Assembly (NCBI GenBank): GCA_965247505.1
Contig: OZ252020.1
Span: forward strand, 2,539,719 to 2,603,718
Source: Micropepsaceae bacterium
Lineage (GTDB): Bacteria > Pseudomonadota > Alphaproteobacteria > Micropepsales > Micropepsaceae
Direction: 5' to 3'
DNA length: 64,000 nt
Position numbers and translations under genes: made by a program. Within the stretch, counting starts at the first letter, position 1; each line of letters opens with the position of its first letter. The notes beneath the pieces are model-generated. The model made no database searches. It saw only the letters and a program-made list of their open reading frames with translations, and was not told the DNA's origin. Below are positions 6,912 through 59,760 of the stretch, piece after piece.

Positions 6912-7397
6912 TCAGGCAGTGTATAATTGACCAACATAGGCGGTGAGCCGCCCCATGATTAGAACGCCCGCCCAAAAAAGCGCCGCGACAGTGGCAAACC
7001 TTATGCCGTTGGCCGAGACGCTGTTCGTCTCCTGCCAGCCCTCCGCTTCGCGCTTCAAGATTATCTGAAGATAAAGGGTGGCCGCTATACCGGCGACAAC
7101 CAGGCCAAGCTTCCACTGGAAAAGGCCGTCACCCAAATAGCGTGCAGGCTTAGTCAGAAACAAGGAAAAGCCGCTCAACGCCTGGACCACGACGCCGATC
7201 CAGATGAGTGGAATGAGCCTCTGCATCAAAGTATAGGGAAGCGGGCGGAAGGTCCCCAACATTCGCAAGGCAATGATGACAATGATGCCGATGACAATTG
7301 CGTTCCCAAACGCATGGATGGTCAGCATGATCGCCCATCCATAAATCGATTCTAGAATCCAAATTGCGTAGGGTGTATTGCCCAGCCATTCGAGCAT
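6912..7397 (-). CDS. Hypothetical integral membrane protein
   Basis: 161 aa with at least four hydrophobic helices. It is co-directional with two other membrane protein genes. Confidence 0.45.
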   Translation of the reverse strand: MLEWLGNTPYAIWILESIYGWAIMLTIHAFGNAIVIGIIVIIALRMLGTFRPLPYTLMQRLIPLIWIGVVVQALSGFSLFLTKPARYLGDGLFQWKLGLVVAGIAATLYLQIILKREAEGWQETNSVSANGIRFATVAALFWAGVLIMGRLTAYVGQLYTA

Positions 7398-7438
7398 TGT
7401 TCACATTCCTCGATTGTTATGTTCCAAATCCAGATCTG

Positions 7439-7543
7439 TTAGTGATCGCCCTTATCCGCAGCGTTGTTCAACATAAAAATTCCGGCGAATATCGCACCGA
7501 GTGCGACGACCGCGAAGGCGACGACCAAAAGCAGCAATTGCAT
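7439..7543 (-). CDS. Small hydrophobic protein (34 aa) absent from the ORF track
   Basis: Minus-strand ATG (rc of 7541-7543) to TAA (rc of 7439-7441). Translation is MQLLLLVVAFAVVALGAIFAGIFMLNNAADKGDH. It lies between two co-directional membrane protein genes. A small-membrane-protein call is tentative. Confidence 0.3.
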   Translation of the reverse strand: MQLLLLVVAFAVVALGAIFAGIFMLNNAADKGDH

Positions 7544-7558
7544 ATGTAAGGCCTCCGA

Positions 7559-8962
7559 TTACAGATAGGGTAGCAGGCGTCCGCCCATGATTACGCCGGT
7601 CCAAGCCGCGAGAATTAGAATAGACGTCAGTTTAGCGCTGATCGCGGCATCGTCGCCCGCCTTTAAACTCCAAAGGTGGCTCGACGTGGTGTAGTAAAGT
7701 GCCGCCACGCCGCCGATGGCGAGAAACGCGACCTTGGGCGCAAATGTCGTATTGTTCACATAGCGATAGGTGTCGGCCAACAATATAAGCATGCCGCTGA
7801 ATACGTTTATCAGAAATCCAAAGAAGGCGAGCGGAAGCACGCGATGGACGGACGAATAGGGTAGGAATTTCCAAAGACCCAAAATACGCAGCGTAATAAA
7901 CAGCACCGAGCCGAATAAAAGCGAATAGCCGAAGAAATGCAGCGTCTGCCAGGGCACGAACCAGGTGATGTTATTGATCGCCGTTTCGATGGCGGGGCTC
8001 CAGAAACCGGTAATGGCATCTTCGGGAAAGACATCCGATGCCGAGCGTATTTCGGGGTGACTAATAAGGCCGCCGCGATGCCCGGTTTCCGCCATGATGC
8101 CTAATGTGATCAGCGCAGAGCCCAAAACGACATAAAGGGCGCGATTGCAAAAACGCTCGACATGCCGGTAGCGCCATAGCTCCATCCAGGCCAAACCGCC
8201 GGTGATGGCCAGGCCGAAAAGCGTCAACAACGCCATGTCACGATGGGCATTAATCGCGCTTGCGGAAAACTCAGGAATCGGCGGCAAGGTCAGCGCCCAC
8301 ATGGATGCCGCGCCCGTGACATAAGTCGGAGCGCCCAGAACAGCGCAGATTGCGAAAATCGCTAGCCCAATTCGTTTTAACGTGTCGTCATCTTTTAGAA
8401 GCGCCGTGATGAAAAGCGCTAGACCAATCACAAACCCAGCTGTTGGGAAGTGATTTAAAATCATATGGACATGCGACCAGCTTTGCGGAGTTCCACCGGA
8501 TTCAAAATCCGGACTAAGTTCGATGTGATTAATTTCCCAACCATTTAGTCCGACCAACGCCATCAAAGCGAGCGTAGCGACCGCCAAGCCCAGAACGACA
8601 AGAAGGATTTGGTTGGAGAGCTGCCCACCGCGCCGAATACGCCAGATCTCATAGGCGCTCGCGACGCCCGTGGCGACCAATATGGCAAGCGCCACCAATC
8701 CCCAATTGTAATGCGTGTCCATCATGGCCTGAGAAATATCAGGGACGGTGGAAAGCGCCGTCATCGAGCCGAGGCCGCTGACATAGGTCGGAATAGCCAA
8801 TAGCCCCAGAACACCAAAAAGTACCAGGCAAATCCGTTTGGTCAGCTCGCTATTGGTGATGAGCCCGGTGAGATAAGCGCCGAGAACAAATACAAGCCCG
8901 ATAGATGGAAATATGCTGACCAGAAGATGAAGATGCGACCAAGATGCCGGAATAATATGCAT
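7559..8962 (-). CDS. Polytopic membrane protein of unknown function with an internal duplication
   Basis: 467 aa with about 12 predicted TM helices. The internal repeat PTYVSGLGSMTALSTVPDISQAMMDTHYNWGLVALAI versus PTYVTGAASMWALTLPPIPEFSASAINAHRDMALLTLFGLAI indicates a tandemly duplicated domain. Confidence 0.55.
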   Translation of the reverse strand: MHIIPASWSHLHLLVSIFPSIGLVFVLGAYLTGLITNSELTKRICLVLFGVLGLLAIPTYVSGLGSMTALSTVPDISQAMMDTHYNWGLVALAILVATGVASAYEIWRIRRGGQLSNQILLVVLGLAVATLALMALVGLNGWEINHIELSPDFESGGTPQSWSHVHMILNHFPTAGFVIGLALFITALLKDDDTLKRIGLAIFAICAVLGAPTYVTGAASMWALTLPPIPEFSASAINAHRDMALLTLFGLAITGGLAWMELWRYRHVERFCNRALYVVLGSALITLGIMAETGHRGGLISHPEIRSASDVFPEDAITGFWSPAIETAINNITWFVPWQTLHFFGYSLLFGSVLFITLRILGLWKFLPYSSVHRVLPLAFFGFLINVFSGMLILLADTYRYVNNTTFAPKVAFLAIGGVAALYYTTSSHLWSLKAGDDAAISAKLTSILILAAWTGVIMGGRLLPYL

Positions 8963-9386: not shown

Positions 9387-9860
9387 ATGGCAATTGATCT
9401 CAACGTGAATGGGGTTCAGCATTCAGTCGATGTAGCGCCGTATACGCCGCTGCTCTGGGTGATCCGGGATCACTTTAAGCTGAAAGGGACCAAATTCAGC
9501 TGCGGCATCGCCCAATGCGGCGCCTGCACGCTGCATATCGATGGTCAACCAGCGCGCTCCTGCAGCGTTCCGGTCTCGGCCGCGGCAGGCAAGGCCGTGA
9601 CCACGATCGAAGGCGTATCAGCCGATGGTTTGAATGCCGTGCAAGAGGCATGGGTCGAGCTCGACGTCCCGCAATGTGGCTACTGCCAATCGGGTCAAAT
9701 CATGAGCGCGGTCGCATTGCTTCGCAGACACCCAAATCCGAGTGATGCGGATATCGACGCCGGGATGACCAATGCATGCCGCTGCGCAACCTATTACCGC
9801 ATCCGCCAGGCAATCCATTTGGCTGCCTCAAAGATTTCCGCGGAAGGGGGGACGCTGTGA
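9387..9860 (+). CDS. (2Fe-2S)-binding small subunit of a molybdenum hydroxylase (IorA / aldehyde oxidoreductase small-subunit type)
   Basis: Two [2Fe-2S] cysteine clusters, [12 protein letters not shown] and the [11 protein letters not shown] motif. 157 aa. Confidence 0.85.
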
Positions 9861-12220
9861 TGAACAAGGATGCTCTCCCAAGCTCTGATCTTTCGGGCTC
9901 CGATCTTTCCCGGCGCGATATGCTTTCCGCGGCAGCGGCCGGCGCGCTCGTTATCGGTTTCCGGGTCCCGCGCGCGAAGGCGCAAATCATAGATCCGGAA
10001 GGCGCCGCATGGGCCAATGAGCCCGAATTCGACGAAGTGAATGCCTGGGTGGTCGTCGCGCCCGACAATAGCGTGACCATCCGTATCGCGCAGACCGAGA
10101 TCGGCCAGGGCGTATGGACCTCCAATGCCATGATGGTGGCCGAAGAGCTGCAATGCGACTGGAGCAAGGTCAGGCCCGAATATGCCTCCATCAATCGAGA
10201 CGCGCGCGAAATGGCGCCGGAATGGACGCTCAACGTGATGGGCGATGGCGCGCAAGACCCTAATGGCGGCGGCGAACCAGAGTTCCGCGACCGCAACCCG
10301 ACCGGCACAAATGGAATCCCGGACAGCCTTTATCGGCGCATGCGGACAAACGCCGCCGCATCCGTGCGCGATGGCCGTTACTATCTTCAACTGGCCGGCG
10401 CCGAAGCGCGCGAGCGACTATTATTAGCCGCCGCCAGGGTCTGGCGCGTTCCCGTCGAAGAGGTGAGTTCGGCCAACAGCCTGATCAGCCATGGGCCCAC
10501 TGGGCGCAGCATTACCTATGGACAGGTTGCATCGATTGCCGCGCAAATACCCCATCCGAATCCCGAAGGCATCCGCATCAAGCCGCCTTCGGGATGGACA
10601 TTGATGGGGACCGAGCGGAAAAACCTCGATGTTCCGTTCAAAATCTCCGGCAAGACCGTTTACGGCATCGATGTTGACCTGCCGGGCATGAAATGGGCGG
10701 CAGTGCGGTCCTGCCCGGTCTATGGCGGCACCGTGCGCAGTTATGATTTCGAGCAGATTCGAAACGAGCCGGGAATCATCTCGGCGACCGATTTCCCGAT
10801 CCCCGATCCGTCATTGATCCGCGGCCGCTTGTTTAGCGGGGGCGTCGCCGTTATCGCCGATAGCTGGTACCAGGCCAACACGGCGATCGATAAAATGCCG
10901 ATCGAGTGGGATATCCCGCCGGAAAACGCCGCATGGAATACCGCCAATATGCGCGCGGCGCTGATGGAATCATTGGACGAACCCGGCACTGTTCAAGCCA
11001 ACACCGGCGACTTCGATAGCGCCTTTGCGGGCGGTGCGAAAATAGTCGAAGCAGTTTACACAACGCCCTATCTCCCGCGCGCCCGGATGGAGCCCGGCAA
11101 CGCGACCGTGCTTGTCACCGACGACAGGGTCGATATCTGGGTCGGCGATCAGAGCCCGCAGGAGACGCGCCATTCGGCATCCCGTATTACAGGCATCCCG
11201 GAAGAGAACGTCCATCTTCATTTGTGCCATCTTGGCGGCGGCTATGGCCGCAATGGCAACGGCCCACAAGCCGAACAGACGATTCTTTTGGCCAACCAAA
11301 ACCGCGGCACGCCGATCCATATGCTTTGGACCCGCGAGGAAGACTTCGTCAGCACCACTTATCGTTCCATGGGCGTCGCGCGGCTGCGCGCGGCTCTCGA
11401 TGACGATGGCTGGCCGATCGCTTGGGAAGTCAAAACAGCCATGGACGAAAAGGCGCCCGGCTCCACCGCGGGCTTCGACATCGCCCCGCGCTACTTTGTG
11501 CCCAATTACCGTTTCTCGACCCACTCTGTGGCGTTCCACATTCCCGTAGGCACGCGGCGCGGCGTCGGCGCCCCTGCCATGAATTTTTATCGCGAGAGCT
11601 TCATAAACGAACTGGCCCACGCTGCCGGGATGGACCCGTATCAGTACCGCCGCGAGCTGATTTCGCGCGGCGACCTCCCCTACAAGGCCGACATGATCAA
11701 AGCGCTGGACATGGCAGCCGAAATGTCGGGCTGGGGCACGCCTCTGCCTGAAGGTACCGCGCGCGCCATCGCCTTCGAAGAACGCGGGGCCGAGGCCGAC
11801 GGCCATGCAACGTTCAGCGCCCAAGTCCATACCGTCTCGCTCAGTCGCGAGGGCGAAGTAAGCCTTGTTTGCGTCGATATCGCGCATGACGAAGGCTTCG
11901 GTCTGGTCAACCCGCTCAGCGTGAGAAAACAAATCGAAGGCCAGATTCCGTGGTTCTACAACGACGTGATGTATCAAGAATGTAACGTTAGCGAGGGCCG
12001 CATCGTCGAAAACAATTTCGATAGATTTCCCTTGGGCCGTATCGGCGACAATCCGCCCGAGATCAACATTTCCTTTTTCAAGTCGGAGCATTGGCTCGAC
12101 GGCATGGGGCATGATCGCGGCGTCTCGCTTCAATCCACTATTGCTGACGCCATCTTTCAGATCACCGGAAGGCGTTACCGCGACCTGCCCTTCCGCCATC
12201 ACGATTTGAGTTGGGGGTGA
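9860..12220 (+). CDS. Molybdopterin-binding large subunit of the molybdenum hydroxylase (IorB-like), with a Tat signal peptide
   Basis: The ATG at 9860 overlaps the stop of the upstream gene (ATGA). The N-terminus contains RRDMLSAAAAGALVIGF, a twin-arginine signal. The roughly 786 aa show similarity to the aldehyde oxidase/xanthine dehydrogenase Mo-binding domain. Confidence 0.85.
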   Translation: MNKDALPSSDLSGSDLSRRDMLSAAAAGALVIGFRVPRAKAQIIDPEGAAWANEPEFDEVNAWVVVAPDNSVTIRIAQTEIGQGVWTSNAMMVAEELQCDWSKVRPEYASINRDAREMAPEWTLNVMGDGAQDPNGGGEPEFRDRNPTGTNGIPDSLYRRMRTNAAASVRDGRYYLQLAGAEARERLLLAAARVWRVPVEEVSSANSLISHGPTGRSITYGQVASIAAQIPHPNPEGIRIKPPSGWTLMGTERKNLDVPFKISGKTVYGIDVDLPGMKWAAVRSCPVYGGTVRSYDFEQIRNEPGIISATDFPIPDPSLIRGRLFSGGVAVIADSWYQANTAIDKMPIEWDIPPENAAWNTANMRAALMESLDEPGTVQANTGDFDSAFAGGAKIVEAVYTTPYLPRARMEPGNATVLVTDDRVDIWVGDQSPQETRHSASRITGIPEENVHLHLCHLGGGYGRNGNGPQAEQTILLANQNRGTPIHMLWTREEDFVSTTYRSMGVARLRAALDDDGWPIAWEVKTAMDEKAPGSTAGFDIAPRYFVPNYRFSTHSVAFHIPVGTRRGVGAPAMNFYRESFINELAHAAGMDPYQYRRELISRGDLPYKADMIKALDMAAEMSGWGTPLPEGTARAIAFEERGAEADGHATFSAQVHTVSLSREGEVSLVCVDIAHDEGFGLVNPLSVRKQIEGQIPWFYNDVMYQECNVSEGRIVENNFDRFPLGRIGDNPPEINISFFKSEHWLDGMGHDRGVSLQSTIADAIFQITGRRYRDLPFRHHDLSWG

Positions 12221-12261
12221 AGCTGCTTTCAGGCAAACGCGATTTTCACGGAGGCTCTACG

Positions 12262-13152
12262 ATGCGCAGACGCTCGATTGCGGCTCTCATGGTTGGAATC
12301 TGTGTATGCACACTCGCCTGGCCGGTTCACGCCCAGGAGCGCGCGCTCCTCGGCGACGCTGCGCTACCCGATTTTTCCGGCCTGTGGGGACATACGCTCC
12401 TTGAAGTCGAACCGCCCTTTTCGGGCGCCGGGCCGGTGACAAATTCGAGCCAGATCCCGGGTCTTAACGCTGGGGATCACACCAATCCGATCCTCAGGCC
12501 CTGGGCGGCGGAGATCGTCAAGCGCAATGCCGAACTCGCGCTGAGCGGCCTGCCCCGTCCAACGCTGCACAATATGTGCGATCTGGAAGGCGTGCCCCTA
12601 ATTGTCACCGTAAAGGAAGTAAAGTTCCTGCAGACTCCCGGGCAAGTCACGATGCTCTATTATTCAAATCACCAAGTGCGTTTCGTCGCCATGAATGTTG
12701 CGCACACAGTGAATCCTGAGCCCACATGGTTCGGAGAGTCCGTCGGCCATTACGAAGGCAATGACACGCTGGTGATCGACACGATCGGCATAAAGAGGAC
12801 AGACGATACCGAGGTCGATTGGTTCGGCACGCCCCACACGGACGCCCTGCATGTCGTCGAGCGCTATCGCTTGGTCGACAGCGAGGAAGTGGTCAGAGCG
12901 CCGGAACCAGACCGGCGGCGCGAAGGCAGGGTCGGCACCTATTACCGCCCGCTACCCGGAGGCAAGACGCTGGGAGTGCAATACAATGTGGAGGACCAGG
13001 GCGCTTTCACGAAGCCGTGGGGGGCAGTCGTGCACAATGAAATAACGCCGGACAGAGACAACTCGCTGGAGCATGTCTGCGCCGAGAATAATCGCTTCTT
13101 CTTCCGCGAGGAATTGTTCCCGATGACGAGTGCCGGCGATCCGGACTTCTGA
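12262..13152 (+). CDS. Secreted protein, member of the WYGESxGHYEGD paralog family. It sits directly downstream of the Mo-oxidoreductase genes.
   Basis: Signal peptide MRRRSIAALMVGICVCTLAWPVHAQ. The family motifs WFGESVGHYEGNDTLVIDTIG and FGTPHTDALHVVERY are present. The gap to the upstream gene is only 42 bp. Confidence 0.6.
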   Translation: MRRRSIAALMVGICVCTLAWPVHAQERALLGDAALPDFSGLWGHTLLEVEPPFSGAGPVTNSSQIPGLNAGDHTNPILRPWAAEIVKRNAELALSGLPRPTLHNMCDLEGVPLIVTVKEVKFLQTPGQVTMLYYSNHQVRFVAMNVAHTVNPEPTWFGESVGHYEGNDTLVIDTIGIKRTDDTEVDWFGTPHTDALHVVERYRLVDSEEVVRAPEPDRRREGRVGTYYRPLPGGKTLGVQYNVEDQGAFTKPWGAVVHNEITPDRDNSLEHVCAENNRFFFREELFPMTSAGDPDF

Positions 13153-13275
13153 GGGACGCACCATGTTATATAGACTAGATGTGCTCCAGGTCGGGGCTGA
13201 CGAGGAGATAGATTTCGACGATTAGCGCAGCGCACCGAAAAACCGAAAATGCAGAAACAACATGCGGGGGTCAGT

Positions 13276-14049
13276 ATGAGCCAAGAGATAGCGGTTGTTG
13301 TCATACACGGCATGGGATCTCAGGAAGCGAATTTCTCGCATCCCCTCCGGGATGAGATAAACAATAGACTCGGCAGCCAGAAGGCGAGTCAGGTTAGTTG
13401 GGGAGAAATTTTTTGTGCTGACATCTTAGCGCCAAGACAAGCAGCGTATTTTCAGCGGGCCAAATCGAGGAATGATCTTGATTTCGTTCGGCTACGAAAA
13501 TTCATGTTGGAGGCATTCGGAGATGCATCTGCCTATAGAAAGACAGGTGATCGCAGCAATACCGCTTACCGGGACATTCACGAGAGAGTGACCGCGAGCA
13601 TAATGGGGCTTGATGATCCGGCTAAGCCTAAGAAGCCTCTAGTCATAATGGCGCATTCTCTCGGCGGACACATCATGTCAAATTACATCTATGACATGCA
13701 GAAGCGACAACCGAGGCAACCAGGAATTAGTGCCTTTCGGTATATGAAGACGGTGGCAGGTCTCATTACATTCGGCTGCAATATCCCGTTTTTCACATTC
13801 GCCTTTGAGAAGGACGATATTCAACCAATCAAATTCCCTGGCTCTGCGTTGTCTCAGGAGAACAAAGCTCGGGCGCGTTGGCTGAATTTTTACGACCCGG
13901 ATGATGTTCTTGGTTATCCGCTGAAGCCGATCAATAAAGCATATCGAGCAGTCGTAAATAGAGATATACCAATCAATGTCGGCGGGATCTTATCTAGCTG
14001 GAATCCACTGTCCCATAACAAATATTGGACAGATAACGACTTTAACTAA
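13276..14049 (+). CDS. Alpha/beta-fold hydrolase (lipase/esterase-like)
   Basis: The IHGMGSQ motif and the GXSXG nucleophile elbow AHSLGGH are present. Local GC is lower than the surroundings. The start could be 13249 or 13276. Confidence 0.5.
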   Translation: MSQEIAVVVIHGMGSQEANFSHPLRDEINNRLGSQKASQVSWGEIFCADILAPRQAAYFQRAKSRNDLDFVRLRKFMLEAFGDASAYRKTGDRSNTAYRDIHERVTASIMGLDDPAKPKKPLVIMAHSLGGHIMSNYIYDMQKRQPRQPGISAFRYMKTVAGLITFGCNIPFFTFAFEKDDIQPIKFPGSALSQENKARARWLNFYDPDDVLGYPLKPINKAYRAVVNRDIPINVGGILSSWNPLSHNKYWTDNDFN

Positions 14050-14104: not shown

Positions 14105-15769
14105 CCAGGCTGTGTGAAAACGCGTTGGCTGGTATGATTCTTCTGTGATTTGGTGGAGGGGTCGATGAAGCGCTTTGTAGTTGGCGATGATCGCAGTTAA
14201 AGCACTCTTTTTCCTGAGCGGCTGGATGAGTATTTGGGCGATGACAACCCGGTTCGGGCGATTGATGTCTTGGTTGATGAGCTTGATCTGGGGGAATTGG
14301 GCTTTAGCGGGGTTGAGCCGGAGGCGACGGGAAGGCCTGCCTACCATCCGGCGACGCTGCTGAAGATCTACGTCTATGGATACCTCAATCGGGTCCAATC
14401 GAGCCGTCGCCTAGAGCGGGAGTGCCAGCGCAATCTCGAGCTCCTATGGCTGACCGGCCGCCTGATGCCGGATTTCAAAACTATCGCCGATTTCCGCAAG
14501 GACAACGGCGGGGCCATCCGCAAGGTCTGCCGTGCGTTCGTAGTGTTGTGCCGTCGCCTTGAGCTGTTCAGTGAGGCGAGCGTTGCGATCGATGGCAGCA
14601 AGTTCAAAGCGGTCAATGCGTGGGATCGGAACTTCACGCAGGCCAAGATGCAGCGGCGGTTGAAGCAGATCGACGAGAGCATTGCGCGCTACCTCTCGCA
14701 GCTTGATAGCGCCGATCGCCAGGGCGAAGCGGTGCCGGAGGCCAAGATCACGCGGCTCAACGAGAAGATTGCGATGCTGCGCCAAGAGATACAGCGCCTG
14801 AATGCACTGAACGTTCAGATGATGCAGAGCGAGGACAAGCAGATCTCCCTGACAGATCCCGATGCGCGCTCGATGGCCACGAGCGGCCGGGGCAGCGGGA
14901 TGGTCGGTTATAATGTGCAAAATTCCGTGGACACGACGCATCATCTGATCGTTTCCCATGAGGTGACCAACAAAGGCTCTGATCGGGGTCAGTTGTCGGG
15001 CGCTGCCGCGCAGGCGCGCACGGCCATTGGTTCTGAAACCATCGAGGCTGTTGCCGATCGCGGCTATTACGCCGGCGAAGAGATCCTGGCCTGCGAGGAG
15101 GCCGGCATAACGGTCTATCTCCCGAAGCCCCTGACCTCAGGGGCCAAAGCCGCAGGGCGTTTCGGCAAGCAGGACTTCGTCTATGTCGCCGAAGACGATG
15201 TCTATCTTTGTCCCAACGGTGAGCAGCTCACCTATCGCTATACCAACGAAGAGGCCGGTAAGATGCTGCGCCGCTATTGGACGGCTGCCTGTCAGGCGTG
15301 TGCGCTGAAAAGCAAGTGCACGACGGCTCGGGAGCGCCGGATCTCACGTTGGGAACACGAAGCCGTCCTTGAGAGAGTTCAGGCGCGGCTCGATCGAAAT
15401 CCGGACAAGATGCGCGTGCGCCGCCAGACCGTGGAGCATCCCTTCGGTACGATAAAGTCGTGGATGGGAGCGACGCACTTCCAGATGAAAACGCTCGAGC
15501 ACGTCGGCACCGAAATGGCGCTGCACGTTCTGGCCTACAACATGAAACGCGTGATGAAGATTCTTGGCGTTGGCGGATTGATAGAGGCGATCCACGCATG
15601 AGACGGGCTCAGGGGGCCCCATAACCCAGCATTCTTCGCATCAAGGAGCCGTTAGGCATCTCCGCGGACCGATTTTACTGAATTGGACGCGTCGGGTCGC
15701 ATAATCCCGCCCCGACCTCCGCTTACGCTACCAACCACCAGACCCGACCACCTTTTCACACAGCCTGGG
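14105..15769 (+). mobile_element. IS1182-family insertion sequence
   Basis: Terminal inverted repeats CCAGGCTGTGTGAAAA (14105-14120) and TTTTCACACAGCCTGG (15754-15769) flank a single transposase gene. The N-terminal signature MKRFVVGDDR.STLFPERLDEYLGDDNPVRAIDVLVDELDL and the C-terminal HPFGTIK motif are those of the IS1182 family. Confidence 0.7.
14165..15601 (+). pseudogene. IS1182-family transposase interrupted by an in-frame TAA at codon 12 (14198-14200)
   Basis: The ATG at 14165 reads MKRFVVGDDRS-TAA-STLFPERLDEYLGDDNPVRAID. The stop replaces the conserved Gln (CAA) of the family N-terminus. The remaining 467 codons are intact (the track ORF restarts at TTG 14234). Confidence 0.65.
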
Positions 15770-15775
15770 TCAGGA

Positions 15776-15838
15776 GCGGACATCCATGTTGCAGTGCAAT
15801 AAGTCTGCTAAGTGCCACAAGCGGACATTGGTGTGAGC
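15776..15838. repeat. 60-bp imperfect inverted repeat, left copy. Its partner is at 17787-17845.
   Basis: The reverse complement of 15776-15838 matches 17787-17845 (ATGTCCGCTT.TGGCACT.AGCAGAC.TATTGCACTGCAACATGGATGTCCGCTC) with about 3 mismatches in 58 bp. It contains the palindrome TTGCACTGCAA and two GGATGTCCGC direct repeats. Confidence 0.7.
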
Positions 15839-15920: not shown

Positions 15921-16718
15921 CTAAAAATCATGCGCCGAGGCTGTAGGAATATCGAATACTCCGCCTGAAGGGTCCTTGTTGTTCTCTGCACACGCAGACT
16001 CGTGAAATGGCGCCGCGGGCCAATAGGTCGCGCGCGCTGACCAGGGTGTGGTGAACAGTTCAGGGTCTTCAATAGTGAGTTCTATTGCAATCGCGCTGCG
16101 GTCGGGCGCAATCGTATATCGTTCGACAATGTGCAAATTCTCGCTTCGTGGCGTGCCAAAGCGGTCTACGAGTGCGACGTCATTCTGGCCGATCGTATCG
16201 ATAACCAAACTATCAGAGCCTTCGTAATGGCCGGTAGAATGGCCGTACCATGTCCGGGGAGAATTATTGGCATGCCCTTCGTTGAGATAGACATGCCGCA
16301 CTTGATTGTCGCGCTCGTAAATGATCGTCACCTTGTCGGGCGACTGAAGAAATTGCAGTGGATCGTTCATGTTGACCACTAACGGCACGCCGGGCGGCCA
16401 GCACAAGACCCAAGCGGGCTGACTAATGTTTCCCGAACGGCCGATTGCCGCATGCGCCGTAACTGCCGCCAGGGCCTCTGGTCCAAGTATGCGGTTGTCC
16501 AAATCCGCGATCCAGAAGGGGCCCGAATCCGCCGCGCGCATCATCGGCCCCGGCCCGCTTTCGGGAGCTTGGAACGATCGCCCTTCGGCGCTATCTGAAC
16601 GCGTCCAATAGCCGGTGAAATTCGGGATTTCAGTTTCTTGTGCGGCGATACTCGCCGGAGAAATCAAGACGAACAGTCCGGACAGTATTAGGAGATGGCG
16701 GCAAATCGATCTGCGCAT
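15921..16718 (-). CDS. Secreted protein, member of the WYGESxGHYEGD paralog family
   Basis: Signal peptide MRRSICRHLLILSGLFVLISPASIAAQ. Family motifs WYGHSTGHYEGSDSLVIDTIG and FGTPRSENLHIVERY are present. Confidence 0.6.
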   Translation of the reverse strand: MRRSICRHLLILSGLFVLISPASIAAQETEIPNFTGYWTRSDSAEGRSFQAPESGPGPMMRAADSGPFWIADLDNRILGPEALAAVTAHAAIGRSGNISQPAWVLCWPPGVPLVVNMNDPLQFLQSPDKVTIIYERDNQVRHVYLNEGHANNSPRTWYGHSTGHYEGSDSLVIDTIGQNDVALVDRFGTPRSENLHIVERYTIAPDRSAIAIELTIEDPELFTTPWSARATYWPAAPFHESACAENNKDPSGGVFDIPTASAHDF

Positions 16719-16846
16719 TGCGATGCCCTCGGAGCCGCCCAGTTAAGCAAAACCATATTATCGCGGCTCAGCGTAGCGCAGTTTGGCCTGACGGCTCCTT
16801 TAGTACCAGCGGTTTAGGGTGCGACATGTCCGCTTTACCTTTGCGG
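16671..16846. repeat. 176-bp direct repeat, copy 1. Copy 2 is at 17575-17750 and is nearly identical.
   Basis: Two mismatches over 176 bp. Copy 1 covers the start codon, the signal-peptide-coding 5' end and the upstream region of the family gene 15921-16718. Confidence 0.85.
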
Positions 16847-17160
16847 TCTCAATGGATCAACGCAACACTAGCGGCAGGCCTCTCTGCCGGGGGTTAGAAC
16901 CTCAAAGTCTTTCAGGACCGTTCTTGAGCCGTCCGGCCACTTTTCTCGGATGCGAGAGCGAATAGACCGAAAACACAGCACTCTTCAGAAAGCGTTATCA
17001 GAGCAGGCGTTTGACGTTCCCATTGGAGCTGGGCTGGCAGTGATTCCACGGCCCAGGCTTCTCGTGCAAGGTGAACCACGGACTATGCCTTTGGCTCGTA
17101 AGCACAAACTCAGACTCCTCCGTTTGCGCCAAGGTGTTGCGTCGACCGGTTGAGGCGGCA
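16842..17160. repeat. Roughly 320-bp inverted repeat, copy A. Copy B is at 22579-22888 in reverse complement.
   Basis: Identical 67-aa and 63-aa spurious ORFs appear in both copies (16950-17153 + equals 22576-22779 -). Nucleotide identity is near 100 percent across the core. The two copies flank a 5.4-kb gene block. Confidence 0.85.
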
Positions 17161-17536: not shown

Positions 17537-17574
17537 AACTGCCCGCCCTCAATTACCCTGAACCGAACAGTCCG

Positions 17575-17750
17575 GACAGTATTAGGAGATGGCGGCAAAT
17601 CGATCTGCGCATTGCGATACCCTCGGAGCCGCCCAGTTAAGCAAAACCATATTATCGCGGCTCAGCGTAGCGCAGTTTGGCCTGACGGCTCCTTTAGTAC
17701 CAGCGGTCTAGGGTGCGACATGTCCGCTTTACCTTTGCGACCTCAGGTGA
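17575..17750. repeat. 176-bp direct repeat, copy 2, carrying a truncated remnant of the family gene 5' end
   Basis: On the minus strand it encodes MRRSICRHLLILSGLFGSG-stop, i.e. only the signal peptide of the 15921-16718 paralog. Confidence 0.8.
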
Positions 17751-17786
17751 TCGATGCACCGCAGCATGGATGTCCGCTTATGGCAC

Positions 17787-17845
17787 TAAGCAGACATATT
17801 GCACTGCAACATGGATGTCTGCTCTCGGGGGCAAAGTGGACATTC
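17787..17845. repeat. 60-bp imperfect inverted repeat, right copy. Its partner is at 15776-15838.
   Basis: See the left copy. Together they bracket the 15839-17786 segment. Confidence 0.7.
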
Positions 17846-17981: not shown

Positions 17982-18911
17982 TTACGGGACTGCACCCGTG
18001 AGCTCTTGATAAATCCTGCGCACCATGACTTCCCTTTGCGGGAGGGTGCCGCCTCCAAACAAATCATATCCAGTCATGCCTTCATATTGTTGAAGGAGAA
18101 TACGAGCCGCGACTTCGTCTTCTGTCGCTCCTTGCGCAATCTCTCTCTCAACGGCATCGCGCGCTTCGACCATAATTTGGCGGGATCGAACCAGCGCCTG
18201 CCGGGTTACTTCAGGCTCGTTCACCGTCCATGCTCCGTTTCCGGGAACGATAATGTCGGCCTCGAGGTTCAAGATGAAATCGATCGCGTTTATCCAGTTG
18301 AGAGTTCCTGAGTCCATGAACGGAAACCGCTCGTAGAAAAACACCTCACTCGTATAGACGATCCGGTCTTGAGGAACGAAAACGATGCTGTCGCCCCGCG
18401 TGTGCGCGGGGCCAACATGGATAATCTGAATTTCCTTGTCACCGACGTGAAGCGTCATGCGCTCAGCGTAGGTCAGATCGGGAAGTATGGCCTCTTGTTG
18501 CGGTGTCGGAACATCATTGCCTCCTAGCAGATCGGCCTTGTAGTCCTCCTGGCCAATATTAATGGCATCTTGATAGGCGACGTTACCGCGCGAATAATTG
18601 CCGTGGTTTGATGAGGAAATCAGATAGCGAACAGGCTGCCCAATAATATCGGATATCAGTTGCCGTTCATGCATCGCCATGGCTTCGTTGCTTAAAGCAT
18701 CAACCACCACGACTCCTTCGTTTGTGACAATTACGCCGCTGATACGGGGATCGGAAAGATACGCATAGTGACCGGGGATAATCTGTTCGAGGGTTCCGGA
18801 TTGTGCGTCGTTGGAGGCTTGCGCGAGTGCGCGATTGAGCTGCGCATCCGTTACGAAGATGCCGAGGCTCAAGGGGAGTAAAAAAACGAGAAACATCATC
18901 GATTTGGGCAC
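17982..18911 (-). CDS. Secreted MBL-fold metallo-hydrolase (metallo-beta-lactamase superfamily)
   Basis: Signal peptide MPKSMMFLVFLLPLSLGIFVTDAQ. The motifs HVGPAHTRGD and SSNHGNY (His/Asp metal ligands) are present. 309 aa. Confidence 0.7.
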   Translation of the reverse strand: MPKSMMFLVFLLPLSLGIFVTDAQLNRALAQASNDAQSGTLEQIIPGHYAYLSDPRISGVIVTNEGVVVVDALSNEAMAMHERQLISDIIGQPVRYLISSSNHGNYSRGNVAYQDAINIGQEDYKADLLGGNDVPTPQQEAILPDLTYAERMTLHVGDKEIQIIHVGPAHTRGDSIVFVPQDRIVYTSEVFFYERFPFMDSGTLNWINAIDFILNLEADIIVPGNGAWTVNEPEVTRQALVRSRQIMVEARDAVEREIAQGATEDEVAARILLQQYEGMTGYDLFGGGTLPQREVMVRRIYQELTGAVP

Positions 18912-19052: not shown

Positions 19053-20153
19053 TTATTCCCAGTGCGGTGTTCCACCCGCCTCGAGATAATCTTGGAACCG
19101 CCTGTCGCTCTCGTCGTAAAACGTGCCCCAGGGGCGCGGATCAGTGGCGTCCCAGTCGAGCTGCTCGCCCGGAACGCGATGGTTGAGAAAACCGTTCTCG
19201 TCCAAATAGACTGTTGGTGACGGGCCGTTGGTGTCGGTGCACGTCACATAGAGCGGCCGAAATTCGGGACGCGTCTCCGTCTCGAGCCTGAAATTGTGCT
19301 TGGCGTGGTAGGGACGCACAAAGACCTCCGGGTCGTAGAGCGTGACTTCGCCCTCGATAATATCGCCCACGCGCCGGTAGCGCTCCACCGTCTCCAGATT
19401 GTCGGTGTGTTCCGAGGGCCCACCGAACCATCCTTTCACCTGATTGGTGTGAATGATGAGGGCATCGCCGTCCCAGAAGCCTACCGATTCGCCGTGCCAT
19501 TTGGGATATTGCAACTCCTGCGAACTGTGTCCACTGCCGTCGGTGTATATCCAGCGGATGTAGTTCACGCCGACGCTTGAGGCCAAGGTCCAAACCTTTT
19601 CCGGCGTTACGATGAATTCATCGACATTCGTTAGCGCAGACATGAACCCGCCGGGCAGGCAAAAGGCGCCCGCCCACCAGGGACGCGCTTGGGCTTCGGC
19701 CCGCACGTCCTGAATGAAATATTCCTGATGTTGCGGCGTCAGTAATGCGACGGTCGAACTTACGGGGTTCTGTCCGCCACCGAACGCGCCCCGCTCGTGC
19801 GCCCAAACGCCGCTCCAATCTGGGATCGTATCCTTGGTATGTTGTGTGCCGCCGTCTGCCTCCTCGCGCCAAGCCTGGTAGTGCTCCCAGGCCGTGGCAA
19901 AAGAATAGGGGCTCGTATGTTCGCGCGAGCCAGGCACGCCCGTGCCCGTCGTGCCGTAGGATGCGGGATCTTCGCCCATCCCACGCATCTCGCTGTTGGT
20001 ATTGTGCCGATAATAGGCCGGATCGGTCCAGTGTTCGCGGTCTGCACGAAAATCCTCGGTCGTGAAGATGTCTTGCGCGGTTGCGCTATAGGCAAAACCC
20101 GCGAACAGCGTAACCAGCGAAACCGTCGCCGACAGAGAAGCCCGCATGATCAT
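19053..20153 (-). CDS. Secreted protein, long (about 370 aa) subtype of the paralog family
   Basis: The start at MIMRASLSATVSLVTLFAGFAYSATAQ (ATG 20153) follows a GGAGG RBS. The motifs KWHGESVGFWDGDALIIHTNQ and EHTDNLETVERYRRV are present. It is paralogous to 57341-58501 (EEHYNAWLEAADGGTEH versus WEHYQAWREEADGGTQH). Confidence 0.6.
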   Translation of the reverse strand: MIMRASLSATVSLVTLFAGFAYSATAQDIFTTEDFRADREHWTDPAYYRHNTNSEMRGMGEDPASYGTTGTGVPGSREHTSPYSFATAWEHYQAWREEADGGTQHTKDTIPDWSGVWAHERGAFGGGQNPVSSTVALLTPQHQEYFIQDVRAEAQARPWWAGAFCLPGGFMSALTNVDEFIVTPEKVWTLASSVGVNYIRWIYTDGSGHSSQELQYPKWHGESVGFWDGDALIIHTNQVKGWFGGPSEHTDNLETVERYRRVGDIIEGEVTLYDPEVFVRPYHAKHNFRLETETRPEFRPLYVTCTDTNGPSPTVYLDENGFLNHRVPGEQLDWDATDPRPWGTFYDESDRRFQDYLEAGGTPHWE

Positions 20154-20219
20154 TCCTCCTGTCTGAATCCGGACATATGGCTTTTGCCCCGGAGGGCACC
20201 TGTTATTCGTAGATGCCAA

Positions 20220-20588
20220 TTATTCGTGGATGTAAGTATTCCCATCGGCGCTGGTGATCGTCGTGAAGCTTCCGCCCGGGCGGCCGTCTCTTAAGGGGTG
20301 CATGTTCACACTAACTGCGTCACCATCCGCGAATGTGTTTAAGTTCATTCCCCCGCGGAGCATGGTCGGAATGTTCACCATCTCGATCCAATATTGCACG
20401 GTCTCGCCGTTTTCCTCTTCGACATCGACATAGAGGAAGGCGTGCGGATTGCTGAACACATATCCGGACACGGTCCCGTTGATGGTCACATCACTAGTGT
20501 TGTCGAACATCGCGTGGCTGTGGTGCGCTAATGCTGCCGGCGCGACCAGCAAAGGCCAGGTGAGTATTACGAAATAGATGCCTCTCAT
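20220..20588 (-). CDS. Small secreted protein whose predicted mature N-terminus is HHSHAMFD (unknown family). It lies immediately upstream of a paralog-family gene.
   Basis: Signal peptide MRGIYFVILTWPLLVAPAALA, then HHSHAMFDNTSDVTINGTVSGYVFSNPHAFLYVDV... Total length is 122 aa. It is paralogous to 25838-26219. Confidence 0.55.
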   Translation of the reverse strand: MRGIYFVILTWPLLVAPAALAHHSHAMFDNTSDVTINGTVSGYVFSNPHAFLYVDVEEENGETVQYWIEMVNIPTMLRGGMNLNTFADGDAVSVNMHPLRDGRPGGSFTTITSADGNTYIHE

Positions 20589-20712
20589 AGCTCGGTCCTC
20601 TGGGTGCTAATGCGATCTTTGGCGGTGGGGAGCAAGACTACTGCACTATGGGCACCTCATCCAGGGATTTTAGATGTCCGGGAACCGGAAACGGAGATCC
20701 TCAGAGCGATAT

Positions 20713-22437
20713 CTATCGCACTTGCACTTTCACGATTTGCGAGGGCGGACGATAGGAGGGGATCCAAAGCGTCGGCCGTTCGGTGCCGGGCTCCACCGTT
20801 AAATCGCGCATCACATAGGGGCGCGGCATAAAATATTCGACCGACTCGCCGGTTTCCATATCGATGCGGAAGAGGCGATTGGCGTTGAAGTCCGTCGTCC
20901 AAACCCATCCGTTTTCATCATCCACCGAAAGCGTATAGGGCGCGGCATAGGGCGGGTCATAGGCCTCGGTTCCGGGAAACATAGGATATTCTTTCATCTC
21001 ACCGTTGTCGGGATTGAAGCGCATAATCCGTCCCGCATAAAAAAGCGGCGTCCAGAAATTTCCCTCGGCGTCCATCTCGCCACGCCGCGGTCCCGATTCC
21101 GGCGTTGAAATTTCATAGAGTTTGTATTCGTCGTTCGTGGGATCGAAGACGCCGATTTGGCCGCCCCGCCATATATTGATGATGGTTCGGGCTTTCGAAT
21201 CCGTCTCCATGTCATAGACGCCGTCATTATAGGGGATGGGGTGTGTGATCACCTCGCCATTGTTCAGATTGAGCTCGAAGAGCGGGCCGCCTTCATTGGT
21301 GTGCCAAACATGATCATTGGAATCGAGCCCGAACATGCTGGCGCCCGACGGCCATTCGTCGAATATTTCGGTAACGGGATTGTAGCGCACCGTTGCCATG
21401 TCCATACCGATAATGAGATTGCCTTGGCTGTCGGCCAATAGATCGTGGGACCCGCCACCGGGATTGCCGGCGCGAATTTCACCCGGCGCCGCGTCCGTCA
21501 CCCGACCGCCGCCCGGCGGAATGGCATAGGCAAGTTCGACCACCTCGCCGGTGTTCTTGTCCAACCGTCCCAAAGCATTGGAAAAATGATCCGTGTACCA
21601 AGCATATTGCTCGTCGATGACAACATCATGCGGCCAAACATGGCGTGCGTCGCCGCGCAGCATGAAAAGCTCGCGCTCGCCGCCACGCGGCAGATCATAT
21701 TCGGTCAGGACAAGGCGCGTGGCCTCCTCGGAGGTCGGGCGCGGGCGCAATTCAAAGGGGATGACATCGGACGATCCCGGCCCGCGAATAGAGGTGATGT
21801 ATTCCGCGAGCGGCTCGATGAAGCGCATCTGGCTAAAATTCAAGGATTTAGGGAAGTTCTGTGACGTTCTTGCCCGCCCGCCCATGAGGTGAATAATTTC
21901 TGTCCAGCCCGCCTGATCATATTCGAAGCGCAATGCGCGCTGAATCGAGTGGCAGGTGCTGTATTGCGAAAACAACACTTTCTCACGGTCCGTCCCGGGA
22001 AGCGCCGCCACAATCTCCGATGCGGTCGCGTCTTCGATCGAGGGCTCGCGCGCGATCAGCGCGAAATCCGCATGCGCGGAAGACCCCTCGCTCAGCGCGA
22101 CGGCGTCTTGGTGAACATGCCCATAATCGGGAAGCTCTATGGAAAGCGTATGCGCGCCCGCGGACAAATCGGACCAAGCGGGGAAGGAATAGATTCCATC
22201 GCCATTGCTATAGACAACGACGCTGAAACTCTTGCCGTCTCCGCGAGCACGTATGGGAATGCCGGCGAGCGCGTTGCCGTCTTGCGATGTAATGCGGCCA
22301 TAAAGAAGCGCGTCTTGTTCGACGCCTGCGAATTCGTCACTCGGCGAGCAATTCGAAACAATTGCGAGAAGTGCAAAAGCAGCTATAGCCCGCAAGGCAC
22401 CGCGGCTCCTAAATATCGACAATGGCATGATTTCCAT
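20713..22437 (-). CDS. Secreted protein with an N-terminal carboxypeptidase-regulatory-like beta-sandwich and a C-terminal beta-propeller (Vgb-lyase/NHL-like)
   Basis: 574 aa with a signal peptide. The segment LYGRITSQDGNALAGIPIRARGDGKSFSVVVYSNGDGIYSF resembles the CarboxypepD_reg fold. The downstream repeated blades are Gly/Asp/Trp-rich. Confidence 0.5.
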   Translation of the reverse strand: MEIMPLSIFRSRGALRAIAAFALLAIVSNCSPSDEFAGVEQDALLYGRITSQDGNALAGIPIRARGDGKSFSVVVYSNGDGIYSFPAWSDLSAGAHTLSIELPDYGHVHQDAVALSEGSSAHADFALIAREPSIEDATASEIVAALPGTDREKVLFSQYSTCHSIQRALRFEYDQAGWTEIIHLMGGRARTSQNFPKSLNFSQMRFIEPLAEYITSIRGPGSSDVIPFELRPRPTSEEATRLVLTEYDLPRGGERELFMLRGDARHVWPHDVVIDEQYAWYTDHFSNALGRLDKNTGEVVELAYAIPPGGGRVTDAAPGEIRAGNPGGGSHDLLADSQGNLIIGMDMATVRYNPVTEIFDEWPSGASMFGLDSNDHVWHTNEGGPLFELNLNNGEVITHPIPYNDGVYDMETDSKARTIINIWRGGQIGVFDPTNDEYKLYEISTPESGPRRGEMDAEGNFWTPLFYAGRIMRFNPDNGEMKEYPMFPGTEAYDPPYAAPYTLSVDDENGWVWTTDFNANRLFRIDMETGESVEYFMPRPYVMRDLTVEPGTERPTLWIPSYRPPSQIVKVQVR

Positions 22438-29044: not shown

Positions 29045-29658
29045 CCTATTCGCGCGATATCCGTCTCAGTGCAGAACGTCTTCTCACCTTGGTGAACGAA
29101 TTGCTGGACTTGGCGCGCATCGAAGCCGGTCAACTTAAGCTGGAGTCTAATGATGTCGCGCTGGAGCCATTGGTTGAGGAGTGTGTGCGGCTACTTCAAC
29201 CCGAGGCGACGAAGTATTCTCTCACCCTCGAGAAAGAAATTTCGACCGAGCTTCCCAATGTCATTGGTGACTTGCGTTCGCTCCGTCAGGTGCTGATCAA
29301 TCTAGTTACCAACGCGATTAGATTTACCGGCGAGGGCGGGTGCATAAGCGTGTCAGCCCAGCTGGCCGATGACGGCGCGCTGATTGTTTGCGTCGCCGAT
29401 ACCGGCATCGGCATGAGCAACCGCGAAGTGCAACAGGCGTTAGAGCCGTTCGGGCAGATCGAGGGAGCCGCTCAGCATGGAGACGAAGGGCCGGGCTTGG
29501 GCCTTTGCGTTGCCAAAGCGCTGGCGGAAGCGAACATGGCCGAGTTTCGGATCATGGGCGAGCCGCGCCGCGGCACTCAGGTTGAATTGCGCTTTCCGCC
29601 CGAACGGGTTCAAGAAGTGAAAGAAGGCGGCTCCGACGCCACTGCAGCCACCGGATAG
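29045..29658 (+). pseudogene. Sensor histidine kinase, 3' portion (HATPase_c), continuation of 26677-27594
   Basis: AYSRDIRLSAERLLTLVNELLDLARIEAG (X-box), then the N-box LINLVTNAIRF and the G-boxes DTGIGM and GLGL. Confidence 0.7.
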
Positions 29659-59722: not shown

Positions 59723-59760
59723 ATGCGGGCGAGAATAGATACCGGAGGGAATAGAGAGGC

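Follow-up and report, generated by a model that had tools for sequence, protein, structure and literature searches.

The genes at 9387-12220 of the stretch analysed here (64,000 nt of Micropepsaceae DNA, hereafter the window) encode a molybdenum hydroxylase of the xanthine oxidase family, which is of the two-gene IorAB type and predicted to be periplasmic. We favour, with moderate confidence, a reading in which this conserved two-gene enzyme is followed by the gene of a lineage-specific, probably co-transcribed barrel protein, which would be neither a subunit nor an electron acceptor nor a maturation factor of IorAB.

Gene content of the iorAB locus

The three open reading frames lie where the initial annotation had placed them, all on the same strand (Table 1). 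The iorA product consists of two [2Fe-2S] domains, an N-terminal plant-type domain and a C-terminal Fer2_2 domain (Pfam scores of 27.2 bits for Fer2, with a cut-off of 21, and of 94 bits for Fer2_2, E 6.1e-27, with a cut-off of 30.3), while its NCBIfam matches to the XDH, PaoA and glyceraldehyde-DH small subunits were all below cut-off. The iorB product matches MoCoBD_1 (E 1.5e-35, 123 bits) and MoCoBD_2 (61.9 bits), the Pfam cut-off being 27 for both, and its orthologues carry the JGI name “isoquinoline 1-oxidoreductase beta subunit”. For the pair, every NCBIfam equivalog score was far under its cut-off. The Tat signal reported earlier for the molybdopterin subunit is indeed present, with a twin-arginine motif (SRRDML) followed by a hydrophobic stretch and then AKA/Q, and both arginines, R18 and R19, are invariant across 26 orthologues; this predicted signal points to a periplasmic location of IorB. 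Two details of the gene structure had to be corrected. The iorA and iorB genes do not share a four-base ATGA overlap, since the TGA at 9858-9860 and the ATG at 9860-9862 have one base in common (TGATG), and the gap between iorB and the third gene is 41 nt rather than 42 bp.

The third gene was rightly described as closely spaced with iorAB, and it has its own Shine-Dalgarno sequence, which ends 7 nt before the ATG. A promoter or terminator between 12220 and 12262, which would have spoken for independent expression, was not recognised: the spacer contains no promoter- or terminator-like site, the consensus promoter scan covering σ70-type sites alone, and no unusually stable hairpin (RNA fold z-score +0.73). 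As GC3 is also equal for iorB and the third gene (0.71), co-transcription of the trio is plausible, and the third gene is probably read from the iorAB transcript. The α/β-hydrolase-like gene that comes next has a low GC content (GC/GC3 of 0.47/0.51, compared with 0.60/0.71), which sets the compositional limit of the iorA-iorB-family unit. In blastn comparisons, DNA homology to other iorAB loci stops at 12220-12227, i.e. at the iorB stop codon, and homology to other loci of the family starts at 12246, the segment 12246-13159 being 84-89% identical to copies found in other contexts. Faster intergenic divergence can explain such sharp boundaries. IS elements and repeats abound in the region.

Table 1 Features of the window discussed in the text.
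Feature	Position	Strand	Evidence or remark
iorA-like small subunit, 157 aa	9387-9860	+	Fer2_2 and Fer2; no signal peptide
iorB-like molybdopterin-binding large subunit, 786 aa	9860-12220	+	MoCoBD_1 and MoCoBD_2; Tat signal
Spacer, 41 nt	12221-12261	+	GGAGG Shine-Dalgarno at 12250-12254
Family gene, 296 aa, exported (predicted)	12262-13152	+	Signal peptide, residues 1-24
α/β-hydrolase-like gene, no signal peptide	13249-14049	+	Sub-threshold Hydrolase_4 and Abhydrolase_6 matches
IS, after the 13249-14049 gene	14234-15601		Transposase matches DDE_Tnp_1_6 and DUF772
Family paralog, 265 aa	15921-16718	-	blastp E 2e-35 to the 12262 gene; HMM 272.7 bits
Distant family member, 388 aa	19053-20219	-	HMM 49.6 bits, E 3e-14; blastp E 3e-9
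Tandem family paralogs, 15 nt apart	25076-25810, 24209-25060	-	blastp and HMM
Marginal family match	57341-58501	+	blastp/HMM
Family paralog	59761-60642	+	blastp E 9e-32

Product of the third gene

The start of the third gene is backed by orthologues beginning with MRR(R)SIAAL, and its product has the signal peptide MRRRSIAALMVGICVCTLAWPVHA/QE. N-terminal signal peptides are present across the family; only 15 of the 196 full-length members have a strict Tat motif, the RR pair shows visible decay in relatives and most signals are Sec-type, so that most members are probably exported unfolded. On these counts, Tat export of the family, with cofactor loading as its consequence, was rejected. The model of the protein shows a well-modelled N-terminal extension with one helix (80 residues, conserved), followed by an antiparallel β-barrel of the calycin/FABP-like class, which superimposes on known calycins. 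Identity to any solved structure is only 8-15%. A profile of 51 sequences matched nothing in the PDB at E <= 1, and no Pfam or NCBIfam family matched at E <= 0.01, so that homology to a known calycin family was not seen at the sequence level. The best fold matches are ligand carriers, and the matched superfamily also contains enzymes and a haem-binding member. Of the four cysteines, two are inside the signal peptide, and those of the mature protein (C106 and C273) are conserved and probably form a periplasmic disulfide. The C-terminus is conserved in the family and ends in ...PDF. The protein contains no CxxCH, and neither Pfam nor NCBIfam detects an FAD_binding_5/CO_deh_flav_C domain (E <= 0.01) or an XdhC_CoxI (XdhC/PaoD) domain in it. 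The dN/dS of the gene is 0.24-0.48, compared with 0.05-0.12 for iorA and iorB.

Conservation of gene order around iorB

We compared 80 species-level orthologous iorAB loci. The iorA gene lies next to iorB, on its upstream side, in 74 of them, and each of the other neighbours seen in the window recurs in 0-8, which makes iorA the sole gene conserved beside iorB across species. A canonical family gene directly downstream of iorB was found in none of the 80 loci, and a divergent DUF6152 fusion or family-like gene in 7. The downstream gene is otherwise variable (α/β-hydrolase, LCM methyltransferase, β-propeller, Amidohydro_2, esterase, Oxidored_molyb), with no cluster larger than 7 of the 62 downstream ORFs. 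Behind the nearest iorB orthologues (92, 91 and 88% aa identity) there is either nothing or an Oxidored_molyb gene, and no family gene. The trio is shared only with a 99.6%-identical strain, in which the downstream IS content differs. The linkage in other genomes on which the proposed partnership depended thus largely fails to appear, and the comparison argues against a conserved or obligate third subunit of IorAB. Since the trio is confined to the lineage of the window's strain, its third product probably serves as a local accessory rather than as an enzyme subunit.

Family members are also juxtaposed with iorB genes elsewhere. One case is a second iorB paralog (49% aa identity), which is followed after 163 nt by a family paralog (L001-L003); it lies on a 4.4-Mb contig where an identical iorB is present as well. 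In five closely related gammaproteobacterial (Rariloculus-like) loci, a fusion of DUF6152 with the family core lies directly after the orthologous iorB (the ORF at 8652-9779 of L075 was used in the comparison of fusions), and a divergent locus (L064) has such a fusion after an iorB that is 77% identical, the third gene being only 30% identical. In two further loci (L010 and L024), two family genes lie immediately upstream, on the same strand. These analogous arrangements in other lineages leave room for a loose functional affinity between IorAB and the family. Overall, the surroundings of the 80 iorAB loci contain 44 family matches, of which 12 are immediate neighbours; a uniform spread would give roughly 6-7, by a rough estimate that is uncorrected for shared ancestry, and this count speaks against the reading that we favour. 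The number of IorB-adjacent members is within chance expectation. In a neighbor-joining tree these members are scattered over the family, and a dedicated IorB-associated subclade was accordingly rejected. Literature searches gave no useful result for DUF6152 or for IorAB in combination with Tat and cytochrome c.

The family in the window and at large

The label of family paralog given to the third gene is correct, as canonical paralogs were found in the window by both blastp and HMM. The tandem pair matches with E 3e-39 and 4e-16 (HMM 272.5 and 186.9 bits). An NHL/SGL β-propeller gene (58634-59722) lies 38 nt upstream of the paralog at 59761-60642, which is convergent with a dienelactone-hydrolase gene (60697-61602), and the distant member has a Vgb_lyase/SGL-like propeller gene (20713-22437) on one side and a metallo-β-lactamase-fold gene (17982-18911) on the other, all these neighbours being assigned with Pfam. 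Mobilisation of the third gene by flanking repeats was rejected: the 55-nt inverted repeats at 15774-15828 and 17770-17824 bracket the 15921-16718 paralog instead. Family members make up about 10% of the window's genes, and several adjacencies are therefore expected by chance.

The family has no Pfam model, comprises about 14,000 clusters at 50% identity and is common in soil Alphaproteobacteria, Acidobacteriota and Gammaproteobacteria. In a family-centred sample of 80 soil-metagenome loci (377 kb), 125 family genes were found, with tandem or multiple copies in 28 loci, and an IorB-like gene was present at a single locus. The 80 immediate non-family neighbours match 66 different Pfam families, none more than twice, by which a conserved genomic partner of any kind was rejected. 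Three proteins from other contexts (P0003, P0009 and P0016, with 86, 75 and 63% aa identity) were considered as orthologues of the third gene product and discarded: the 4.4-Mb contig with the identical iorB holds at least three further members of the subfamily, in the same 90% clusters, so that these proteins are recent paralogs and are of no use as a test of orthologue synteny. The true orthologues (77-88%) are on contigs of 1-2.8 kb.

Interpretation of the locus

In the reading that we favour, the two-gene periplasmic IorAB is the conserved functional unit, with IorB bearing the Tat signal and IorA presumably hitch-hiking, and a copy of a recently amplified subfamily has landed directly behind iorB in the lineage of the window's strain. 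Its product, predicted to be exported, is a calycin/FABP-like barrel with one probable disulfide and no recognisable redox cofactor site. Judging from the fold, its likeliest role is to bind a small hydrophobic or aromatic molecule in the periplasm, or to convert it without a cofactor, and the many fast-evolving paralogs could have diversified in ligand specificity. If it cooperates with IorAB at all, for instance by capturing a poorly soluble substrate or product, this would be local and opportunistic. Of the periplasmic partner proposed in the initial annotation, the shared compartment stands, as both products carry export signals, while the linkage expected of a partner is unconserved across the 80 loci; the more specific role in substrate delivery fits the modelled calycin/FABP-like fold and meets the same objection.

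An alternative holds that IorAB-type enzymes have in the family protein a true, dedicated partner in the periplasm, a barrel shuttling substrates or products, with different paralogs recruited to different IorAB paralogs. The independent co-directional juxtapositions (the window, the 163-nt arrangement of L001-L003, the five Rariloculus-like loci and L064) and the upstream pairs of L010 and L024 argue for it, and the shared compartment, identical GC3 and ligand-binding fold are in agreement with it. We nevertheless consider it unlikely, because the linkage is absent from at least 70 of the 80 orthologous loci, the closest relatives included, only one of the 80 family-centred loci has an IorB-like gene and the family has no preferred neighbour, the IorB-adjacent members form no clade, and the third gene has a dN/dS 5-8 times that of iorAB. 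If such a partner were real, periplasmic molybdenum hydroxylases would gain a new accessory component, and a very large unannotated protein family its first functional handle. A still wider proposal, which we regard as doubtful, makes the family a new class of exported calycin-like substrate-capture proteins beside diverse periplasmic catabolic enzymes, with iorA-iorB-family and iorA-iorB-DUF6152::family as true three-component Mo-hydroxylase systems. The paralogs would then hand poorly soluble substrates to neighbouring enzymes; those envisaged are IorAB-type enzymes, lactonase-like β-propellers, dienelactone and α/β hydrolases and MBL-fold enzymes. Another option is that the calycin barrel serves as the scaffold of a small periplasmic enzyme that needs no cofactor (such as an isomerase, cyclase, decarboxylase or hydrolase) and that would act on an intermediate of the catabolic route of IorAB instead of being a passive binder. 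This too seems improbable to us, as Pfam, NCBIfam and the PDB profile gave no sequence relation to characterised enzymes, binding proteins more typically show high dN/dS and massive paralogy, and the best fold matches are ligand carriers.

A further reading takes the family protein for a missing redox subunit of IorAB, e.g. a nitrobindin-like haem b or metal protein in place of the cytochrome c or FAD subunit of three-component relatives. This is very unlikely, and the electron acceptor first suggested is disfavoured with it: the protein has neither CxxCH nor an Fe-S cysteine pattern, its two mature cysteines look like a disulfide, no flavin, haem or other domain is matched in Pfam or NCBIfam, the signals of the family are mostly Sec-type, the gene is unconserved with iorAB, and the measured dN/dS does not indicate the strong constraint to be expected of an obligatory redox partner. 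Moco and Fe-S clusters are inserted in the cytoplasm, before Tat export, and a maturation factor is likewise disfavoured, since the third product is exported and has no XdhC/PaoD domain. At the other extreme, the adjacency could be purely fortuitous, the family gene having its own unrecognised promoter and being expressed independently of iorAB. The sharp homology boundaries of the family-gene module, its presence in unrelated contexts, the abundance of IS elements and repeats and the restriction of the promoter scan to σ70-type sites are all compatible with this; the 41-nt gap leaves scant room for a promoter and a 5'UTR, no terminator-like structure follows iorB, and the arrangement is intact in the 99.6%-identical strain despite its differing downstream IS content, which makes such independence quite improbable. 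On present evidence, the locus amounts to a normal iorAB pair to which a lineage-specific passenger has been added. Of more use is the description of the family as exported, calycin-like, highly paralogous and fast-evolving, with one conserved cysteine pair and without a fixed genomic partner, and the family merits a model of its own.

Comparison with known systems

The window's enzyme resembles known IorAB in its small subunit with two [2Fe-2S] domains, its large MoCoBD subunit with a Tat signal, its overlapping genes and a conserved unit of two genes. It differs in its NCBIfam equivalog scores, which are far below cut-off, and in the extra gene for an exported protein, appended in the window's lineage alone. 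Membrane-bound aldehyde dehydrogenases consist of Mo, FeS and cytochrome c subunits, and PaoABC, CoxMSL and Qor of Mo, FeS and FAD subunits. As in these three-component enzymes, the third gene comes immediately behind the catalytic genes in the same orientation, and the location of the enzyme is extracytoplasmic; unlike theirs, the third protein has no CxxCH, FAD_binding_5/CO_deh_flav_C or other Pfam domain, and its gene is not conserved with the catalytic ones. Compared with calycin binders (FABP/CRABP, the bacterial FABP-like Rv0813c, the nitrobindins Rv2717c/THAP4 and lipocalins), the 296-aa family protein is about twice the size, with an 80-residue N-terminal extension, a signal peptide, a conserved cysteine pair and the C-terminal ...PDF, and with 8-15% identity to solved structures and no PDB or Pfam profile match. 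Bug/TctC proteins are “orphan” periplasmic solute receptors with a Venus-flytrap α/β fold. Their fold is unrelated to that of the window's family, for which no transporter link is known; the likeness is in genomic behaviour only, both families being exported, about 300 aa long, massively amplified, arranged in tandem arrays and mostly without a fixed partner gene.

The iorAB pair and the third gene

The three open reading frames lie where the initial annotation had placed them, except that the ATGA overlap claimed for iorA and iorB is in fact a single common base (iorA stop/iorB start, TGATG). IorB opens with an N-terminal SRRDML, a hydrophobic segment and AKA/Q, and both arginines of the motif are invariant in 26 orthologues. 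Where sources name these orthologues, they are called isoquinoline 1-oxidoreductase β subunit; every NCBIfam equivalog scores far under its cut-off. IorAB is most likely a self-contained two-gene periplasmic molybdenum hydroxylase. The two membrane-protein genes divergent from iorAB do not represent a conserved redox partner of the enzyme, since they are kept together in only one of 80 orthologous iorAB loci (L023).

The close same-strand spacing proposed for the third gene holds, although the gene begins 41 nt past the iorB stop rather than 42. Its start codon is fixed by homologues beginning MRR(R)SIAAL. Co-transcription of the three genes is plausible, since a consensus scan of the spacer found none of the promoter- or terminator-like sites that would have spoken against the earlier proposal, the spacer RNA shows no excess of structure over shuffled controls (z = +0.73), and the third gene and iorB agree in GC/GC3 (0.598/0.710 and 0.603/0.710). 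The following α/β-hydrolase-like gene (0.473/0.506) is compositionally foreign and probably foreign DNA; an IS1182-like transposase gene comes after it.

Features of the window and of comparison loci (L numbers)
Feature	Position	Strand	Remarks
Membrane-protein gene pair	6912-8962	-	467-aa DUF2231 protein; 161-aa protein, no Pfam match
iorA	9387-9860	+	157 aa; Fer2, Fer2_2 domains
iorB	9860-12220	+	786 aa; MoCoBD_1, MoCoBD_2 domains
GGAGG	12250-12254		precedes third gene
Third gene (family member)	12262-13152	+	296 aa
α/β-Hydrolase-like gene	13249-14049		
IS1182-like transposase gene	14234-15601		
55-nt inverted repeats	15774-15828, 17770-17824		93% complementary
Canonical family paralog	15921-16718	-	blastp/HMM
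195-nt direct repeat	16670-16864, 17564-17758		95%
Distant family member	19053-20219	-	blastp/HMM
β-Propeller/family pair	19053-22437		
Canonical family paralog	24209-25060	-	blastp/HMM
Canonical family paralog	25076-25810	-	blastp/HMM
PAS/HisKA ORF	26677-27618	+	
Transposase_mut (IS256-type) gene	27829-28989	+	
HATPase_c ORF	29089-29658	+	
Marginal family match	57341-58501	+	blastp/HMM
β-Propeller/family pair	58634-60642		
Canonical family paralog	59761-60642	+	blastp/HMM
Multihaem cytochrome c gene	62645-63970	-	Paired_CXXCH_1, Cytochrome_C7, c3 matches
β-Propeller/family pair	L004:294-2588		
β-Propeller/family pair	L166:423-3142		
DUF6152 (PF19649)-family fusion gene	L047:10383-11441		directly after iorB

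Conservation of the arrangement

Among 80 iorB-centred loci from different species of Alphaproteobacteria, Acidobacteriota and Gammaproteobacteria (63-79% aa identity), iorA is upstream of iorB in 74, and a canonical family gene is directly downstream of iorB in none; the remaining window neighbours occur in 0-8 loci each and none is conserved. The ORFs downstream of iorB fall into many unrelated clusters, and the genes found there include α/β-hydrolase, LCM methyltransferase, β-propeller, Amidohydro_2 and esterase genes. Behind the closest iorB orthologues (92, 91 and 88% aa) there is either nothing or an Oxidored_molyb gene, and blastn homology to their loci spans about 9313 to 12220-12227 and then ends. 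Only one locus, L173, was found to have the same trio; it matches the window at 99.6% identity over 9.1 kb and differs in its IS content downstream. As a system the three genes are thus not conserved, and the arrangement that the initial annotation proposed to look for in other genomes is shared by this one near-identical locus only.

The same was seen from the family side. The 80 family-centred soil-metagenome loci (377 kb) hold 125 family genes, with more than one copy, frequently in tandem, in 28 of them. An IorB-like gene occurs in a single locus (L154), where an amidohydrolase gene separates it from two family genes. The 80 nearest non-family neighbours match 66 Pfam families, none more than twice, and the family is thus without a fixed partner gene. 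A same-strand pair consisting of an NHL/SGL/Vgb_lyase-like β-propeller gene and then a family member recurs, and is about as frequent in the data set as IorB linkage. Since paralogs adjoin lactonase-like β-propeller genes (58634→59761, 20713→19053, L004 and L166), dienelactone hydrolase (DLH) genes (L001, L174 and 60697) and an MBL-fold gene (17982), a generic accessory role in periplasmic catabolism is suggested, with no specific bond to the Mo enzyme.

Several recurrent juxtapositions keep a functional IorB-family link alive. L001-L003 carry a second iorB paralog (49% aa) and, 163 nt behind it, another family paralog, 36% identical to the 12262 product. In five closely related gammaproteobacterial loci (L043, L047, L051, L063 and L075, iorB 88-96% identical mutually), the orthologous iorB is followed by a gene for an N-terminal DUF6152 domain fused to a divergent but recognisable family core, in which SGxW, GxSVGxFExDGTLVVETTGF, ERY, VEDP and the two Cys are all kept; the gap is about 500 nt in L051 and within about 62 nt in the others. 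This architecture is repeated in L064 (iorB 77% identical), where the third gene is only 30% identical. In L027 a family-like gene lies 666 nt downstream, and in L010 and L024 two canonical members are directly upstream on the same strand. Stand-alone DUF6152 genes lie near family genes in L003, L166, L173 and L176. Overall, 44 family-HMM matches were found in 925 kb around the 80 iorAB loci, 12 of them immediate neighbours, against about 6-7 expected under uniform spread. With related loci collapsed, 4-6 independent adjacency events are left, which is within chance expectation because family members make up roughly 2-10% of the genes in such regions. The IorB-adjacent members are scattered in the NJ tree, which rules out a dedicated IorB-associated subclade.

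The family and the origin of the 12262 copy

The placement of the 12262 gene in a family of paralogs was borne out by blastp and an HMM built from 51 homologues, which find 5-7 members in the 64 kb of the window, in what is ordinary chromosome (GroEL, IleRS, RibF, MutL and DsbD are also encoded). No member matched a Pfam or NCBIfam model, and a family profile found no match in the PDB. A word-indexed search returned more than 6,889 significant homologues, each "hypothetical", and an exhaustive profile search 14,116 clusters at 50% identity (E ≤ 1e-3). Conserved in the alignment are a signal peptide, PDFSGxW, GDxTNPIL, WxGxSVGHYEGDTLVIDT, GTPHTxALHVVERYRL, VEDxGxFTxPW, a C-terminal PDF and two cysteines, C106 and the invariant C273; as these are the only two Cys of the mature 12262 protein, a periplasmic disulfide is suggested. 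Export is predicted to be mostly Sec-type, since no more than 15 of 196 full-length members have a strict Tat motif, and the motif is decayed in relatives (e.g. QRWDFLL, QRGNFLL).

Copies with 84-89% DNA identity to the segment 12246-13159 are present in L001, L004 and L174, in surroundings quite unlike those of the window gene (next to a DLH gene, a CusF-like gene, IS elements and an integrase). P0009 and members of the clusters of P0003 and P0016 are encoded on the same 4.4-Mb contig as an iorB identical to that of the window (P0003, P0009 and P0016 being homologues 86, 75 and 63% identical to the 12262 product); these and 12262 are recent paralogs of one amplified subfamily. The dS among recent family paralogs (0.27-0.30) is lower than that separating the window iorB from the nearest orthologues with known context (0.43-0.76), while dN/dS is 0.24-0.48 for the family gene and 0.05-0.12 for iorA/iorB, i.e. 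five to eight times higher. Against L001:8001-8891, L004:8001-8891 and L174:6047-6937, nucleotide identity (84-89%) equals or exceeds amino-acid identity (75-86%). Judged from these rates, the 12262 gene is functional, under constraint that is much weaker or more diversifying than on IorAB, which points to relaxed or diversifying selection after recent duplication.

Short inverted repeats bracket a 1.9-kb segment with the paralog 15921-16718, inside which the direct repeat lies. The short repeat was also seen in L004, L173 and L174, hinting at a MITE- or REP-like element by which family genes might be mobilised. Elsewhere in the window, 26677-29658 has the appearance of a sensor-kinase gene interrupted by an IS.

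Function of the third protein

An AlphaFold2 model of the 12262 protein, with the 51-sequence alignment as input (pLDDT 81.6, pTM 0.79), matches CRABP, FABP and avidin barrels of the PDB in Foldseek (probability 0.99-1.0, E about 3e-3, target-normalised TM-score 0.5-0.6). The protein is therefore modelled as a calycin-type barrel that has an additional, conserved N-terminal stretch of about 80 residues, and the family, large and unannotated, is structurally assignable at fold level only.

Two of the roles first considered for a periplasmic partner of the Mo enzyme, electron acceptor and maturation factor, are disfavoured. A cytochrome c is ruled out by the lack of CxxCH, and a flavoprotein subunit by the lack of Pfam/NCBIfam domain matches; as the gene is also not conserved with iorAB, we regard any electron-transfer role as highly improbable. 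The multihaem cytochrome c gene of the window is near the family-DLH cluster at its right end, far from iorAB. With no domain match, the 12262 protein is not an XdhC/PaoD-type chaperone either, and its export speaks against the proposed maturation factor, since Moco and Fe-S insertion precede Tat transport. Three conserved His in the family would fit a nitrobindin-like haem b protein, but this is unlikely because most members have Sec-type export and the gene is not conserved alongside iorAB. That the protein is a true dedicated IorAB partner is doubtful.

We consider it fairly probable that a self-contained IorAB stands beside a locally landed family barrel acting as a generic periplasmic catabolic accessory. 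A recent duplicate from a growing family of exported barrels of the calycin type would have landed behind iorB in this lineage, where it is probably co-transcribed with iorAB. The fold, the paralogy and the rate of evolution make periplasmic binding of small hydrophobic or aromatic molecules the likeliest function of the family, with a cofactor-free conversion of such molecules as a possible alternative.

The family itself is the more interesting by-product, rather than the three-gene arrangement, and the iorAB module belongs to an already known kind of enzyme. In the DUF6152 fusions (L043, L047, L051, L063, L064 and L075), the predicted mature N-terminus after the AHA cleavage site is HHS, which is reminiscent of N-terminal-histidine metal sites.
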